Shown: positions 53,691 through 60,375 of the stretch, in pieces
How positions within the stretch are numbered: the stretch's first letter is position 1
Layout: every line of letters starts with the position of its first letter
Program-made: the position numbers and the translations under genes
Source: a virus
Lineage: Duplodnaviria; Heunggongvirae; Uroviricota; Caudoviricetes
Virus record (IMG/VR): IMGVR_UViG_3300045988_161728
Length of the DNA stretch: 64,000 bases
Reading direction: 5' to 3' (one strand)
Notes under the pieces: model-generated
Database searches by the model: none
What the model was told of the DNA's origin: nothing
The model's input: the letters and a program-made list of their open reading frames with translations, nothing else

Positions 53691-54578
53691 ATGACCACTA
53701 TTACCAAAGAGCGACTGCTGACAATCAGGCAGTGGCGCGAAACATACGGACCTGGTAGCAACGTTGTACTGCCAGCAGAAGAAGCGGAAGAACTGGCACG
53801 AATTGCTCTGGCATCGCTGGAGCAGAATGCACTATCTGGCAACTCTCGGCTTATTCCTGGTGAAGTGTTGTCCGCAATCCGGGAGGTTGCCAAGATTCGT
53901 GCCGATTTCGATGATTTTGACGGTGACAGGCGAGGTATCGGTGATTGTCTGGATGAGGCCGAGCAAGAGCTTATCGTTACCATTAACAAATATGCCAGTC
54001 AGTTGGCAGCAGAACCGATAGCGACTAATGACGTTCGAGAGCAAACAGCCGTTCCGCCAATACAGGCTGATGTCGCGCAAGCAATTGAAAATCTCAAGCA
54101 GAAGTTAGTGGAATGCAATCGCTATAACTACTGCGCAGATGCAGTGAAGAACGTAGAGGATGCCTGCCGTGCTGTTAGCTATAGCCAAGCCGACAATCAG
54201 CCAGCATCTGGCAACCAGGCTGCCGAATCCAATCGCGGTAATGAGTGGACTGGCAATCCTGATATTGATAACGCCATCATCATGCTCGACCGCATAGATA
54301 CGCTGGAAAATTGCGATGATGACCGTATTGAGGCTGTTAAGGCTGTTTTGCGTAGACTGGCTGGCAACTCTCCGGTAACTCCGGATAGTTGGATAAGCTG
54401 TAGTGAGCGAATGCCCGCTCAAGATGATTGGATTTTAATTTATTCAAAGCACGGCGAGTATATGGCAGGCCAGGTGCAAGGGGAATACGTGGAGTTGAGC
54501 GACGGCACTTTATCGTGGTTAGGGAACGCCTTGTTCTGGATGCCGCTACCAGAACCGCCGCAGGAGGTGAATCAATGA
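53691..54578 (+). CDS. Ead/Ea22-like protein
   Basis: N-terminus MTTITKERLLTIRQWRETYG; 295 aa. Confidence 0.45.
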   Translation: MTTITKERLLTIRQWRETYGPGSNVVLPAEEAEELARIALASLEQNALSGNSRLIPGEVLSAIREVAKIRADFDDFDGDRRGIGDCLDEAEQELIVTINKYASQLAAEPIATNDVREQTAVPPIQADVAQAIENLKQKLVECNRYNYCADAVKNVEDACRAVSYSQADNQPASGNQAAESNRGNEWTGNPDIDNAIIMLDRIDTLENCDDDRIEAVKAVLRRLAGNSPVTPDSWISCSERMPAQDDWILIYSKHGEYMAGQVQGEYVELSDGTLSWLGNALFWMPLPEPPQEVNQ

Positions 54579-54660
54579 GCTGGCCTGAAGCATTCACCAC
54601 GGTAGGAATTGTGATGGCGGCAGCACTGGGTTTGTATTCAATTTGTCGCTGGTGGTAACG
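54577..54660 (+). CDS. Small hydrophobic peptide (27 aa)
   Basis: MSWPEAFTTVGIVMAAALGLYSICRWW; ATGA overlap with the preceding gene. Confidence 0.3.
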
Positions 54661-54894
54661 ATGGGAAAAATAACTTTTGTAGTCGAATTTGAGGATGGCA
54701 AAGAGCCACCTGTTAGCGCCAATCTTGATGTTGCTGGTGGCAGGCTTGTTTCGGTTCTATTTGGTGACTACCGAGATGACTTCTTCCAACCAGAAGAAGT
54801 TGATGTAGTGCGAGAGGCATTAAACGAGTTAAGTGTTGATAACGATGATGCTCATGCGGAAATCATCCAAAAAATGGAACTGCTAACTCACTAA
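54661..54894 (+). CDS. Small acidic protein
   Basis: 77 aa from ATG 54661. Confidence 0.3.
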   Translation: MGKITFVVEFEDGKEPPVSANLDVAGGRLVSVLFGDYRDDFFQPEEVDVVREALNELSVDNDDAHAEIIQKMELLTH

Positions 54895-54949
54895 ATTATC
54901 AATTATGGTGCTATCACCTACGACACCGAGAGAAAATTTATAATGTCAA

Positions 54950-55072
54950 AAGTAAATGTTTTGATTTTTTCAGCAATTGTTGGCTTTGGTTTTACTGCCG
55001 GAGTGCAGATTTATATTACGTGGGAAAAAATCATCAACTACGCATGGAGTTGTTTTATTAAGTGAGGTAAGT
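54950..55072 (+). CDS. Small hydrophobic peptide (40 aa)
   Basis: MSKVNVLIFSAIVGFGFTAGVQIYITWEKIINYAWSCFIK. Confidence 0.3.
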
Positions 55073-55366
55073 ATGTGGAGAGGTAATAGTCATGGCAAAA
55101 GCCAGATGATACTTACCGAATATCAGTTTGACCATAAAACCAATAAATCACGTTCAGTATATTTGCTTCGGCACAATAGCCGCGTAAGGAATACCGTGCT
55201 GGAGCAAAATCTGACTGTTGAAATAGATAATTACGGGGGCTTCAAGCCAACAATTTCGCTTGATGATTTTCCTCGTGGTTTAAGCGAAAGAGAAGCAATG
55301 CTGAAATTAGCAGAATGGCTACAAAGATTAAGCATTGCTATTGAAGATAACTGGTCTGAACCTTAA
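55073..55366 (+). CDS. Hypothetical protein
   Basis: Start MWRGNSHGK with GAGG RBS; ORF track 54977. Confidence 0.35.
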   Translation: MWRGNSHGKSQMILTEYQFDHKTNKSRSVYLLRHNSRVRNTVLEQNLTVEIDNYGGFKPTISLDDFPRGLSEREAMLKLAEWLQRLSIAIEDNWSEP

Positions 55367-55372
55367 ATTTAT

Positions 55373-55747
55373 ATGATGACACTAAAACATTTTCTTGACC
55401 GCCCATTATGGGCGGCAGCCGCAGGCTATGACTTTAATTATATGGATTGCATGTCTTATACCGCCAATGCATACGACTATTCCTTCAGTCTGCTGCTTAA
55501 TTCTTTAAGAATATTGCCGCAAACAGAAGTTGGAGAGCTTCATTTATGGCTATTGGGCTTTATCGCGGCTGGAGTTGGTATTGCTGTATGGCCTTTTATT
55601 TTCTGGCTGGTGGCTGTTGTAGTGTGGTTTAAGTGCAAGACGTACCGGAGAAAGTATTTCTTAGGTGATGGAATGACTGATATTGCCAAAATGAACATTG
55701 AAAAATGGACTAAGGAATGTGAAAAGAAATGGCGCAAAAAGAAATGA
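55373..55747 (+). CDS. Membrane protein
   Basis: 124 aa with central hydrophobic hairpin and Lys-rich tail. Confidence 0.4.
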   Translation: MMTLKHFLDRPLWAAAAGYDFNYMDCMSYTANAYDYSFSLLLNSLRILPQTEVGELHLWLLGFIAAGVGIAVWPFIFWLVAVVVWFKCKTYRRKYFLGDGMTDIAKMNIEKWTKECEKKWRKKK

Positions 55748-56661
55748 CCAGAATCACTGAAGAGCGTATATCAGAGATTATTTCCCGTATCGAAATGTAT
55801 GGTCACGGTGCTGGATATACGGCAGATGAAGTATTGGCACTTGCCCAAATGGCTTTGGCGGCTTGCAAAGATGATAAAAAAATGAAGTTTATCGACTTGT
55901 TAGTGAAGGAACTGCCTAAGTGCGGCGGGTGGCCTGATGGAATGAGTTATTGTTACCTACCCAGTGTCAATTTAATGGCACCATGCGCGACTTTTGCTTT
56001 TGGCTCAGACCACAAAAAAGACACTTTCTTTGGGCGCAATTTTTGTTGTGAGATTGAGCTTCCAATTGGTGACCTTGATAGCGATGAATACCAGTCAGTT
56101 GTCACTCGCGAACAATACGAATCAGCTCTCATAGCGTCGCAGAAAGTCGAGTTCAATGGTGATGAACTTGAAAGTAAGACTTACAGGTTGGATTTTGGGC
56201 AATGGCTGGAACAGCAACGCGGGAAAATCGATGTGGACTGTGGTTGTGTGTCCACTGAAACATTCATGCACTGGCTGCGGGTAGCTTACGAGGCTGGCAA
56301 CTATCCGGATATTCCGGATAGTTCGGTGCCAGCACCAGGAAAGGGCGTCACCGGTGAACGTATCCGAATTAAGCCGCATGTTTATCGCGAACTGGTTAAC
56401 CGTCTCCACGATACAGCGATCAAGTGTGCTGGCACCCAGCAATTACGAGAAAGAATTAGCCGTGTTTTGGGCGACGTTATTACACCAGATCATCATAAAC
56501 AAGCCGAGAAAAGTGGCCTGGAAAGGTGTCACCTTGAGGCGGCATTAAACATTAAGCCGGGGCATACGCTTGGCATTATTGATGCACTATTGGTTCATAA
56601 GATGGCCAGGGCTTTATTGCCGCTGGTGGATGCTGGCGATACAAGCGAGGGTGAAGTATGA
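55744..56661 (+). CDS. Ead/Ea22-like N-terminal domain protein
   Basis: MTRITEERISEIISRIEMYG resembles the N-terminus of 53691..54578. Confidence 0.4.
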   Translation: MTRITEERISEIISRIEMYGHGAGYTADEVLALAQMALAACKDDKKMKFIDLLVKELPKCGGWPDGMSYCYLPSVNLMAPCATFAFGSDHKKDTFFGRNFCCEIELPIGDLDSDEYQSVVTREQYESALIASQKVEFNGDELESKTYRLDFGQWLEQQRGKIDVDCGCVSTETFMHWLRVAYEAGNYPDIPDSSVPAPGKGVTGERIRIKPHVYRELVNRLHDTAIKCAGTQQLRERISRVLGDVITPDHHKQAEKSGLERCHLEAALNIKPGHTLGIIDALLVHKMARALLPLVDAGDTSEGEV

Positions 56662-57020
56662 GAGTTGCAGATCACATCAAACACCTTGAAAGAATTATCG
56701 AAAACGGTGAACTCTTAAGAGATCAGATGAGACGCACGGCAGAAGTCAGAGAGGCGATAATCCGCAGTCAGGCTGGTAAATTAAAGCAATTATCAGAGAT
56801 TAACGCGCTATACAAGAACAGACGTAACCGGGCGGCGCTGCGGCTTCAGAAAGCACGTAATGAAATTAAATTGGTGGAGGCAAAACTGAAAAAACAGATT
56901 CAGCGTTACGATCAGCAAGATGCTTTTTATGCCGCCATCAAGGCGGCTGCTAATGAAATAGGCATCTGGAAGTTGCTGGTGGAGAAAGCAAAGACGAAGT
57001 TAAATGCCAACGAAAGCTGA
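56658..57020 (+). CDS. Coiled-coil protein
   Basis: 120 aa. Confidence 0.4.
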   Translation: MRVADHIKHLERIIENGELLRDQMRRTAEVREAIIRSQAGKLKQLSEINALYKNRRNRAALRLQKARNEIKLVEAKLKKQIQRYDQQDAFYAAIKAAANEIGIWKLLVEKAKTKLNANES

Positions 57021-57094
57021 ACTACAGGTACCCACCAGCACATACAGAAAATGATTGTTTCCACATCAAGGAGATTTTAATGTTTCACTGAACA

Positions 57095-57232
57095 TTAAGT
57101 AAGCCAGTGCATAATTCCATTTTTTACTGACCTTAAAAGCAAAATCAAAACGATGATGAGGATGATCGCCAGAATCTGGCTAATAACAGGCGCATCTAAA
57201 AATGCACTCAGGAACTGAAAAAAAGCAGTCAT
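57095..57232 (-). CDS. Small hydrophobic peptide (45 aa), possible membrane toxin-like
   Basis: MTAFFQFLSAFLDAPVISQILAIILIIVLILLLRSVKNGIMHWLT; no convincing RBS. Confidence 0.25.
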   Translation of the reverse strand: MTAFFQFLSAFLDAPVISQILAIILIIVLILLLRSVKNGIMHWLT

Positions 57233-57681
57233 TAAGGTGGTTCCTTGTCAAATGTAAAGGAGCACTTGCTCACGTTGACGTAGAAACCCAACCCCTATAT
57301 AGTTGGATTCGGTGAAAGAAAGTCGTTAACGTGAGCTTACGGCACATGTTTTCGGAACAACATCAGGGAACGGCTAATTCCTTGATGCGGATGGGGTCTG
57401 TAATGCAGACCCTATCTATTAACGTCATGATTGCATCTCAAATTTTCTCCTTATCTTCATTAATCAAAATTCATTTCATTTGTGAAACATCACAATATTT
57501 AGAAAATGGCCCTCTTGCAAGTGCATAACTTTGTGGATAAATCAGGAAGAAAAAAGTTGATTCTGCGCACGGCAAGGCAGATAAGCTGTGCACAAAAATC
57601 AATGGGAAAAGAAAAAAAATTAAAAGTTACTTTGCTGGTTAAATAATAGTCGTTACGCAATTGTTCTGGATGGGATTTGAT

Positions 57682-57933
57682 ATGCACGATTGGAATATTG
57701 CAGCTAAAAGTCAGGAAGAACGGGATAAGGTTAACGTTGATCTGGCTGCCAGCGGTGTGGCGTACAAAGAGCGATTGAACATACCTGTCATAGCTGAACA
57801 GGTAGCCCGCGAGCAACCAGAGAATCTGCGCACCTATTTCATGGAACGGTTACGGCACTATCGGCAGTTAAGCCTCCAGTTGCCAAAAGGGAGCGATCCG
57901 GTGTATCAGAACGAGGATGCACCAAAAAAATAA
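57682..57933 (+). CDS. hot: DNA polymerase III theta-subunit homologue
   Basis: [57 protein letters not shown] aligns with E. coli HolE. Confidence 0.8.
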
Positions 57934-58018
57934 CGGCAAGATGGGGGAGAAATGTGATTAGCCCCCAGCGTGGCGCGCCTACAAACCCCGCTTTCACAAA
58001 CTATGCCTTTTCAATGTA

Positions 58019-58038
58019 TACTGTATGAATAAACAGTA
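58019..58038 (+). promoter_or_regulatory. LexA box upstream of humD
   Basis: TACTGTATGAATAAACAGTA (CTG-N10-CAG). Confidence 0.75.
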
Positions 58039-58056
58039 TCATTGAGGTAAAACGCT

Positions 58057-58446
58057 ATGGGCTTCCCTTCTCCTGCGGCGGATTATGTTGAAAGCCGAAT
58101 TTCTCTTGATCAGCAGATAATTAGACATCCTTCAGCGACCTACTTCATGCGGGCAGCTGATAGCCATCACCGTGAGGGAATATTGCAGGGTGCTTTGCTG
58201 GTGGTTGATTCCTCGCTTACTCCGGTTGATGGTTCTCTGCTTGTGTGCGCTATGGAGGGTGAATATCGCATAAAGAGATACAGGAAGTATCCGCGCCAGC
58301 ACCTGGAGGATTTAAGCACCGGGAAGAAAGAGGCGTTACCAGTAGATGACGATGGATACACGGGCAGTAATGCTGTTTTTGGTGTGATCACTCATGTCAT
58401 CAATGATGCCCGAAGTGGGGAATTTGATGATTGTCCGGTTATTTAA
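58057..58446 (+). CDS. humD: UmuD'-like protein
   Basis: GFPSPAADYVE..HPSATYF matches the UmuD post-cleavage N-terminus. Confidence 0.85.
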   Translation: MGFPSPAADYVESRISLDQQIIRHPSATYFMRAADSHHREGILQGALLVVDSSLTPVDGSLLVCAMEGEYRIKRYRKYPRQHLEDLSTGKKEALPVDDDGYTGSNAVFGVITHVINDARSGEFDDCPVI

Positions 58447-58518
58447 GCTGCAAAGTGCTGGTGCTTTATGCCTGTGAAGTTTATAATTGTGTACACATAA
58501 CGAGTACACGAGGTGTTT

Positions 58519-58740
58519 ATGCAATCCATTAACTTCCGTACCGCGCGTGGCAACCTTTCTGAAGTGCTCAACAATGTTGAAGCCGGGGAAGAGGTTGAAA
58601 TCACCCGCAGAGGCCGTGAGCCAGCAGTAATTGTCAGCAAGGCTACTTTCGAAGCCTACAAAAAAGCGGCGCTGGATGCTGAATTTGCATCCCTGTTTGA
58701 CACCCTGGACTCCACCAACAAGGAACTGGTTAACCGATAA
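58519..58740 (+). CDS. phd: Antitoxin Phd
   Basis: 73 aa [39 protein letters not shown]...; stop overlaps doc start. Confidence 0.9.
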
Positions 58741-59120
58741 TGAGGCATATATCACCGGAAGAACTTATTGCGCTTCATGATGCGAATATAAGCCGCTACG
58801 GCGGCCTGCCGGGAATGTCTGATCCGGGTAGGGCAGAGGCCATTATCGGGAGAGTTCAGGCCAGAGTTGCCTACGAAGAGATCACCGACCTTTTCGAAGT
58901 CTCCGCCACCTACCTGGTGGCTACAGCGAGAGGGCATATATTCAATGATGCCAATAAGCGTACCGCGCTAAACAGTGCGCTGCTATTTCTACGCCGTAAC
59001 GGGGTGCAGGTATTTGATTCACCTGAACTGGCAGACCTTACTGTAGGCGCTGCGACTGGCGAGATATCTGTATCTTCTGTCGCCGACACGTTACGTAGAT
59101 TGTATGGTTCTGCGGAGTAG
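58740..59120 (+). CDS. doc: Toxin Doc (Fic-fold kinase)
   Basis: 126 aa, starts [22 protein letters not shown]; Fic-like HxFx(D/N)(A/G)NKR motif (HIFNDANKR). Confidence 0.9.
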
Positions 59121-59124
59121 ATTA

Positions 59125-59304
59125 ATGGCACGCAAATACAACAAATTGTCCCGTGAAGCGTTAAAGATGCTTCTTGATGGCGTGAGTCGCCGCAAGGTAA
59201 AGCAATACCTGGTTGGTAAGCAAATTGGAGTCAGGACCGCTATTGCTGTGTTATGCCGTCAGGAAATGGTTGTGCTTAAACAGAGAATGCCGGGCAGCAG
59301 ATAA
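59125..59304 (+). CDS. Small basic protein (P1 PdcA position)
   Basis: 59 aa from ATG 59125 with GGAG RBS. Confidence 0.35.
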   Translation: MARKYNKLSREALKMLLDGVSRRKVKQYLVGKQIGVRTAIAVLCRQEMVVLKQRMPGSR

Positions 59305-59331
59305 AGCCCAATCAGTGATTAAAGGTGTGAT

Positions 59332-60375
59332 GTGAAAGCCGTAATTACTCCCTTTGTACAGAAAGAGCTTGGCCTCGCCACGTTCAAAGTGGATCAGGAG
59401 GTCAGAAAGCTGGTGGAGGCTGGCCGTAAATTTATTATGGAGCCGGTGCCGCGTGAGTTAATCGAGCACATGGAAGACGGCCTCGTTGTTACCGAGCAAA
59501 CCATGGCAACAAATGAGGCGTTGCAGCCGTTTTTTAACAGCGATGAACTGTTTCGCCGTATTGGTGGAATTGACGCGCTGGTGGCGTGGTTGCGTAGGAA
59601 AGAGGGTCAATGCCAGGCCGCAGATCGTAGTTGGTGTGACAACCATATTGTCCACGCTGAACGAGACAATAGCGCGGTGTTGTTGTGCTGGCATCACGAT
59701 AACCATTACCGGATGCGTGGTTTTAATGAGCTGAAAGAAACGCTGCACAATAATCGCGTTAACTGGATACTGGATGTCGCCCGTCAGGAAATGGGCCTTT
59801 CAAATAGCCATGATTTAAGTATTCAGGAGCTGTGCTGGTGGGCTTTCATGCGCAACATGATGCACCTGATGCCGGAAGAAGTCTGCCGCATATCAATAAA
59901 TAAGATGAAGGCTACTCCGCAGGATAGCGGACCTCTGAAAGAGGCGGATATTCGCCCGTATGACGATCGCGCTACAGCATATGTTCAGATGATGGAAGAA
60001 CGCGCCGCGCCGATGCGTGCAAAAGTATGCCCTGTGGATGTTGACGCCGACCCTGGCATGGCGCATTTCAAAATACCAAAACTTCAATCGCTAAAATTGC
60101 CCGAGTACATGGATTTTGTGGCTTCCCGTCCATGCTGTGGCTGTGGAGCTGCGGGAGCTGGCGCTCACATTACGCCTTATATCGTTCGTCATAGTCGATT
60201 ATGCGCGCATGACATTTATGCTGTTCCTCTGTGCCAGTCATGCCAGCGTGATATTGAGCGTGACCGCGATAATTGGGAGAAGACGCACGGTAGGCTGGCG
60301 ATGCATCAACGATTGTTCTTTGATTACGCGCTTGGAGTCGGCGCTATCACAAGTCATTCGTCGAGCGTTAGATAA
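59332..60375 (+). CDS. Cys/His-rich protein (P1 PdcB position)
   Basis: 347 aa; [12 protein letters not shown] and C-terminal CCGCG...CQSCQRD clusters. Confidence 0.45.

Follow-up and report, generated by a model that had tools for sequence, protein, structure and literature searches.

A 45-codon ORF facing an nrdAB-like promoter in P1-family phage-plasmids: a possible antisense-controlled, type I-like membrane peptide module

The window analyzed here, a 64,000-nucleotide stretch of Caudoviricetes DNA (IMG/VR record IMGVR_UViG_3300045988_161728), is part of a P1-like phage-plasmid, and over positions 56900-57700 it shares 99.9% identity with phage vB_EcoM-813R1 and 98.9% with P1. Between the stop codon of pmgV (56658-57020, plus strand) and the start of hot (57670-57933, plus strand) lie 649 bp containing a minus-strand ORF of 45 codons (57095-57232) that is convergent with pmgV. 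Beyond hot is humD (58057-58446, plus strand) with a LexA box, TACTGTATGAATAAACAGTA, in front of it (58019-58038), and phd/doc is 1.3 kb from the locus of the 45-codon ORF. The earlier note had described a 45-residue frame in an AT-rich gap of some 650 bp, with short plus-strand frames opposite it and a LexA box about 800 bp away, and this description holds: the translation, MTAFFQFLSAFLDAPVISQILAIILIIVLILLLRSVKNGIMHWLT, is exact, the GC content of the gap is 35-44% compared with 45-53% in its flanks, the opposing frames exist (57153-57218 and 57202-57315), and 787 bp separate the LexA box from the ORF start. Because several other ORFs of 37-65 codons are present in the same gap, a 45-codon ORF in AT-rich DNA is unremarkable by itself, and it is conservation that sets this one apart. 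According to the P1 annotation hot has its own late promoter, and in the P1 reference the minus-strand ORF is absent, the only genes annotated in the gap being the plus-strand upfM, upfN, and upfO.

The surroundings of the locus vary among relatives. In P1 and in the divergent plasmids a gene of ~575 bp lies between hot and humD on the same strand as the 45-codon ORF, and in P1 the LexA-controlled lxr is upstream of the ORF on that strand; lxr is absent from the window, where only 123 bp (57934-58056) separate hot from humD, as in RCS47. In RCS47 and D6 the slot directly upstream of hot is occupied not by the nrd-like promoter and the 45-codon ORF but by a different minus-strand gene of 116 aa (locus positions 1412-1762), which a synteny search through hot showed to be unrelated to the 45-codon ORF and which has no Pfam match. 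The presence of a different gene in this slot indicates that the position upstream of hot is an exchangeable cargo site.

The peptide has an N-terminal amphipathic stretch, a hydrophobic core, APVISQILAIILIIVLILLL, and a basic C-terminal tail, RSVKNGIMHWLT. The 20-residue core has a mean Kyte-Doolittle hydropathy of 3.0 (2.6 in the divergent allele) and is followed by R/K residues, so that the product is probably a single-pass peptide with its C-terminus inside, as predicted from its composition. With 45 residues it has the size and character of type I toxins, which are small (<60 aa), hydrophobic, membrane-spanning peptides. Only three alleles occur, all of 45 codons: the P1 type, the P7 type (T2N, V16I), and a divergent type, MIVFFQFLSAFLNAPVLSQVLAIVFIVVLIWFFKSVINRGVRWLI, with 60% protein and 78% DNA identity (40% amino-acid and 22% nucleotide divergence). 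The ORF is carried by 229 PLSDB plasmids, the hosts being Escherichia, Salmonella, and Shigella, and is found in 216 of 5426 complete E. coli genomes, where 222 of its 223 places are on plasmids with a median of one per genome; 54 IMG/VR contigs and 19 metagenome contigs have it as well. It is intact at 59 of 60 loci, and at 18 of 19 metagenome loci. No allele beyond these three came from IMG/VR, the metagenomes, PLSDB (protein and DNA), or phage records, and the GTDB species genomes gave zero matches when scanned for more divergent relatives. Having only three alleles makes the comparative power low. Some records annotate the ORF as a hypothetical protein (WP_000123562.1; JL22 gp107), and in a large protein collection the P1 and P7 alleles are passed over by gene callers; no assigned function was found for it in the literature or in annotation records.

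Pfam, NCBIfam, PADLOC, and PHROGs were searched with the peptide without a significant hit, the top-ranking match being phrog_1184 (function unknown) with E = 0.056. A word-index search of 5.8 billion proteins and a full phmmer scan of 1.84 billion representatives both returned only the peptide's own family and frameshifted copies of it, and with no homologue outside, the peptide family is an orphan confined to P1-like elements. Kinship with the Ldr toxins was considered, as a likeness in the motif LxAPVIxxILA (8 of 15 residues identical to LdrD) had been spotted by eye, and it was not significant when tested. Pfam Ldr_toxin (PF13940) did not match the peptide at E ≤ 10, while the controls LdrD and LdrA scored 94 and 86 bits. 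A local profile built from three Ldr sequences gave the peptide 2.8-5.0 bits, a score reached by 1-4% of shuffled peptides (p 0.009-0.045), which is not significant given that the Ldr family was chosen post hoc. Hok (PF01848) likewise had no Pfam match to the peptide. By these searches the peptide is without similarity to any toxin family.

Whether the ORF is coding was judged mainly from the divergent clade, against which all gap ORFs with 25 or more codons were checked. The 45-codon ORF is the sole gap ORF outside the invariant block to survive there; the one other survivor, a 25-codon frame, is within that nearly invariant block and hence is uninformative. Length, start, stop, and Shine-Dalgarno sequence are all retained in the divergent clade. 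The Shine-Dalgarno sequence AAGGAA (57241-57246, minus strand; AGGA 9 nt before the ATG) has its counterpart there in GAGGA, 8 nt from the ATG, although the 36 nt upstream of the ORF differ by 13 substitutions and one indel (37% diverged). There are no indels in the 138 nt of the ORF compared with 7 in 260 flanking nt (P = 0.024), and the ORF stays intact in 13% of random placements of the 31 observed substitutions (P = 0.13). Inter-clade homology stops ~75 nt past the ORF stop. The substitution pattern itself is less distinctive, with a dN/dS of 0.45 (dS 0.49, dN 0.22) for which the other frames give like ratios (Fisher p = 0.087) and with substitutions falling evenly on the three codon positions (11/8/12). 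For calibration, hot in the same clades has a dS of 0.56, a dN of 0.056, and codon-position counts of 5/3/22. The C-terminal half of the ORF diverges at about the rate of the neutral spacers, and hydrophobicity is retained no better than among simulated intact ORFs. Loose constraint is usual for single-helix peptides. Taken together the evidence for coding is moderate, and the 45-codon ORF is probably a gene under loose constraint. The literature that was covered, which did not extend to the P1 genome paper, contained no transcriptome, start-site, ribosome-profiling, or small-protein data for the locus.

Five independent disruptions of the C-terminus (~57095-57140) are also in circulation: a -1 change in an A-run, the addition of one A (+1), a junction located at codon 31, and a pair of distinct junctions that both end in ...VMTPTY, apparently from one common inserted sequence. 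All of these disruptions spare the first 31 residues and with them most or all of the hydrophobic core; they could be sequencing errors, or could reflect relaxed constraint or selection against an active peptide.

The same comparison is unfavorable to the plus-strand genes annotated in P1. In the divergent clade upfM (57202-57315) has a -1 frameshift and two stops, upfN (57331-57528) has 20 additional nt and four stops, and upfO (57506-57646) has one stop, so that on this pattern upfM, upfN, and upfO are probably not genes. Conserved non-coding elements lie under upfN and upfO. Single knock-outs of upfM, upfN, and upfO have been published as viable with normal plaques. It should be noted that each of these deletions, judged by its coordinates, also takes either the 5' end of the 45-codon ORF or the nrdAB-like promoter described below, and thus the knock-outs neither support nor contradict a toxin.

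No credible or conserved promoter was found immediately upstream of the ORF in a promoter scan of all clades. The best conserved minus-strand promoter-like site among the three clades is further upstream, a core promoter directed towards the ORF, TTGCAA-17-TATTGT at 57492-57520, with TACTGT as its -10 in the divergent clade. Two DnaA boxes on the same strand, TTATCCACA (57532-57540) and TTATGCACT (57520-57528), abut or overlap its -35 element; neither varies among the clades, and both have the same sequence as the boxes that precede nrdA. Indeed, the segment 57502-57616 (minus strand) matches the regulatory region upstream of host nrdAB with 82.6% identity over 115 nt (E = 1e-25), and in P7-type plasmids the match is 93% over 142 nt. 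A match to the segment is present in all 5426 complete E. coli genomes, and its 56-nt core is 94-96% identical to the chromosome, at ypaB/nrdA, among the matches sampled. When aligned to the nrdA upstream region the homologue is the inferred E. coli nrdAB core promoter, TTGCAA-17-TATCTT, and what the two have in common are both DnaA boxes, the -35 TTGCAA, the 17-nt spacer, and ~95 nt of upstream regulatory DNA. The sequence thus has the features of an nrdAB-type DnaA promoter, namely boxes at the -35, a 17-nt spacer, and a -10 with A2 and T6. In E. coli this promoter lies ~107-110 nt before the nrdA ATG, which agrees with the leader length of the published nrd start site. The nrd homology ends at about the -10 (TATTGT versus TATCTT) and the nrdA leader is absent, meaning that the promoter and its upstream control region were taken and the nrdA leader was not. 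On this homology the host nrdAB promoter is the source from which the minus-strand promoter, DnaA boxes included, was copied, and the copy points at the ORF. DnaA acts at the nrdAB promoter via such boxes (PMC8203912). Downstream of the nrdAB-like promoter there is no conserved ORF other than the 45-codon ORF before the convergent pmgV. Here the P1 annotation says no more than that the sequence resembles an E. coli region containing two DnaA boxes. A further DnaA-box-like 9-mer (D4), at the 3' end of the ORF, was rejected as it is not conserved.

An mRNA starting at this promoter (~57485, from the position of the promoter) would have a 5' leader of ~250 nt (57233-57485, minus strand). Near its beginning is a block (57420-57455) conserved at 94-100% that includes a perfect Shine-Dalgarno sequence, AAGGAG (57447-57452), and a 3-codon mini-ORF, MQS*, with its ATG at 57436, which in the divergent clade is a bare ATG-TAA. 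An upstream ORF of 21 codons (57363-57428, minus strand) overlaps the mini-ORF via ATGA and keeps its length in all clades. It was not retained as a candidate conserved peptide, in that its changes, in an alignment read by eye, are mostly non-synonymous and at hairpin positions. Closer to the ORF is an inverted repeat with 13-nt arms, GCTCACGTTGACG and CGTTAACGTGAGC (57268-57336); in the mRNA read from the minus strand the predicted structure of this repeat is a long hairpin, which lies 35 nt before the Shine-Dalgarno sequence of the ORF. This Shine-Dalgarno sequence is itself predicted to be mostly paired in all clades. At the other end of the mRNA, a hairpin over the stop codon, UUAAUGUU-CAGUGA-AACAUUAA (57077-57098, minus strand), is kept in the divergent clade through a U-A to C-G and a G-C to G.U change, the latter pairing only on the minus strand (alignment read by eye). 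No terminator passing the scan was found after the ORF, and an inverted repeat within the ORF (I1) was discarded as not conserved.

The 13-nt arms enclose a second promoter-like site directed the other way. This plus-strand sigma-70-like site, TTGACG-17-TATAGT (57275-57303), predicted in P1 as PupfN, matches the consensus at 10 of 12 positions, has the top score of either strand in the region (13.7), and is invariant in all clades. It is directed into the predicted leader, with the ORF behind it, and the block around it is the best conserved of the locus, with 98% identity between clades versus ~70% in the spacers. The -10 of this promoter is within a small palindrome, CCAACCCCTATATAGTTGG (57281-57299), which has a 10-nt run, CCCCTATATA, in common with the nrdA leader. 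The leader stretch with that run is presumably the NrdR-box region, and given a spacing that does not fit the NrdR-box consensus, the shared run is probably due to chance.

The RNA that this promoter would produce, a predicted counter-transcript of 57310-57420 (plus strand), contains three hairpins, H1 (57323-57355), H2 (57361-57387), and H3 (57389-57417). For 57310-57425 the plus-strand RNA has an MFE of -43.8 kcal/mol with z = -5.15, and the MFE and centroid structures are the same; the opposite strand over the 176-nt stretch 57305-57480 has z = -1.85. In every clade the same three hairpins are predicted, and the plus strand (-37 to -44 kcal/mol) is 13-14 kcal/mol better than the minus strand (-24 to -30 kcal/mol), because eight G.U pairs become A.C mismatches on the other strand. 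Pairing is kept in 98% of the stem cells; a single pair has changed in a compensatory way, from U-A to C-G, and two others have switched between G.U and A-U. This level of covariation was matched by 80 of 500 shuffles, and with so few variants the covariation support is statistically weak. No Rfam family matched at E ≤ 1 in 54000-60000. The scan called no clear intrinsic terminator after the hairpins, H3 being followed by UAUCUAUU, and in consequence the plus-strand RNA might extend in the direction of hot.

If the mRNA starts at the nrdAB-like promoter, the two transcripts would share a perfectly complementary overlap of 110 nt or more. No trans-complementary direct repeat linking the ORF region to that of the sRNA was found, and thus any pairing must be cis-antisense. 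When the antisense target was masked in folding, an invariant segment, GGUUUCU..CGUCAA, was freed and predicted to pair with UUGAC-AAGGAACC in the Shine-Dalgarno region, the pairing partner here being the right arm of the inverted repeat; the predicted change in accessibility is small, which makes a Shine-Dalgarno switch speculative.

The arrangement recalls several known systems. In ldr/rdl an mRNA with a long 5' leader is opposed by a short structured antisense RNA from inside the leader, all within ~0.5 kb, and in both ldr/rdl and hok/sok the antisense is cis-encoded against the 5' leader. As in ldr/rdl (PF13940), the present locus has a small single-pass peptide with a basic C-terminus and a predicted antisense inside a long leader. 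The Ldr genes are in chromosomal long direct repeats, with several copies per genome; the ORF described here differs in being single-copy and plasmid-borne, in having 45 rather than 35 residues, and in its promoter, the nrdAB copy. With hok/sok, pnd, srn, and flm it has in common a plasmid-borne peptide of ~50 residues, a predicted antisense promoter within the 5' part of the toxin transcript, a structured mRNA with a predicted occluded Shine-Dalgarno sequence and a possible maintenance role near a type II system (phd/doc). Unlike hok/sok there is no mok-like coupled frame, the upstream ORFs ending at least 38 nt before the 45-codon ORF. A hok-like fold-back was considered and dropped, as the sole 13-nt 5'-3' complement found (I4) is not kept in the divergent clade. 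Similar to tisB/istR-1 and dinQ/agrB are the hydrophobic peptide, the replication- or damage-type promoter, the predicted long leader, and the putative adjoining, divergently placed sRNA gene, but unlike tisB and dinQ the promoter is of the DnaA-box (nrdAB) type and there is no LexA box at it. In contrast to E. coli nrdAB itself, the 45-codon ORF is downstream in place of ribonucleotide reductase. By these comparisons the layout resembles that of ldr/rdl- or hok/sok-type type I toxin-antitoxin loci, and the peptide falls outside both families.

We now put forward a mechanism for the locus, in which the computed quantities are ORF conservation, promoter homology, and strand-specific folding, and from which we infer both start sites, the RNA overlap, translation, repression, and toxicity. 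We propose that the ORF truly encodes a 45-residue peptide that crosses the inner membrane once and that it would be part of an accessory module of P1-family phage-plasmids. Its mRNA would be made from the captured nrdAB promoter, have a structured leader of ~250 nt, and end shortly after the ORF, and an mRNA that starts at the nrdAB promoter copy would answer to DnaA status. Inside the leader, and in the opposite direction, the invariant sigma-70 promoter would give rise to a stable three-hairpin RNA of at least ~110 nt that is perfectly complementary to the leader. We hypothesize that this counter-RNA restrains translation or stability of the peptide mRNA by duplex formation, possibly by freeing an anti-Shine-Dalgarno segment. 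Organized in this way, the locus would be a type I toxin-antitoxin system built around a new peptide family. The reading that we tentatively prefer, with confidence that falls somewhat short of even, is that of a type I-like module in which a captured nrdAB promoter drives a membrane peptide gene under antisense control. The suggestion in the earlier note of a small membrane protein or a type I pair therefore survives in part: a gene for a single-pass peptide is likely and an antisense partner is plausible, but homology to a known type I toxin is absent.

Any such mechanism must be weighed against readings in which the peptide is harmless or is not made at all, or in which the antisense RNA lies elsewhere. 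The ORF might encode a non-toxic small membrane protein, for instance one that modulates a protein of the host membrane or contributes to exclusion or fitness, with the plus-strand RNA being mainly the hot leader or an unrelated sRNA and any antisense effect being incidental transcriptional interference. The coding evidence is identical for this reading, expression would be tied to the replication cycle through the nrdAB-like promoter, and most characterized E. coli small membrane proteins are not toxins; the absence of toxin homology also favors it, as do the single copy per replicon, unlike ldr, hok, and ibs, which are not single-copy per replicon, and the lack of a terminator after the hairpins, such that the plus transcript may reach hot. 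However, hot has its own late promoter, and the predicted transcript overlap is the best conserved DNA of the locus (87-98% versus ~70% in the spacers), as is expected if both strands work against each other. We regard a non-toxic protein of this kind as unlikely, though well worth bearing in mind. Equally in the realm of the improbable but serious, to our minds, is that the ORF is untranslated and the gap is a regulatory region containing DnaA boxes, hot promoters, and the end of the pmgV operon, perhaps with a non-coding sense/antisense pair, the frame being open by chance in T-rich DNA among close plasmids. That would suit the undistinctive dN/dS, the evenly hit codon positions, the near-neutral C-terminal half, the five independent C-terminal disruptions, the 13% chance of staying open under substitutions alone, and the omission of the P1 and P7 alleles by gene callers. 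It sits poorly with the absence of indels (0 in 138 nt versus 7 in 260 flanking nt, P = 0.024), with a correctly spaced Shine-Dalgarno sequence kept across a 37%-diverged stretch, with the breakage of all other ORFs in diverged sequence, and with a complete promoter copy aimed at the ORF and at nothing else before the convergent pmgV; moreover, none of the disruptions touches residues 1-31, and the core is wholly or mostly spared.

The earlier note had in mind an RNA antisense to the coding region itself, and had proposed a search for its promoter on the plus strand. In its fullest form this would be an antisense across the ORF from plus-strand promoters 3' of it (P1upfM and P2upfM), perhaps encoding upfM and with SOS control exerted by the LexA box. 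The P1 annotation does predict two sigma-70 promoters at ~57055-57116, and the position of the LexA-controlled lxr of P1, upstream of the ORF on the same strand, would be consistent with such control. These promoters score only 6.8-7.9 compared with 13.7 for the plus-strand site at 57275-57303, and neither they nor the frames opposite the ORF, upfM among them with its frameshift, are conserved in the divergent clade, so that nothing backs an RNA antisense to the coding region. A plus-strand promoter-like site does exist, in invariant form, upstream of the ORF rather than opposite it, and a credible counter-transcript from it would be antisense to the leader only if the mRNA starts at the 57492-57520 promoter. 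As for the LexA box, it is the operator of humD (and in P1 also of lxr) and adjoins no promoter of the ORF, the ORF-facing promoter being of the DnaA-box type; the window is without lxr, and the box is 787 bp off, before humD. We consider this reading very improbable.

A more ambitious version of our preferred reading, that of an antisense-controlled module under the captured nrdAB promoter, is that the module is type I and is triggered by replication status: the copied DnaA-sensing promoter would make a membrane-active peptide, one belonging to a new family, dependent on the cell's replication state, with the cis-antisense RNA as a brake, in the service of plasmid maintenance, an abortive response, or lysis timing, and the whole would be hidden under three mis-annotated P1 genes. 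As a complete proposal this is a long shot, and we offer it as such.

P1 has long served as a model phage, and plasmids related to it are common. Even if the peptide turns out to be harmless, it would be another conserved small membrane protein for the P1 gene list. If our proposal is true, the P1 reference annotation of the gap, with upfM, upfN, and upfO, is on the wrong strand, and P1 would have a second addiction or stress module, controlled by RNA and with a new toxin family, just 1.3 kb from phd/doc. It would also mean that a mobile element has recruited a replication-control promoter of its host, so that the connection from DnaA status to a membrane peptide on a plasmid could be tested directly.
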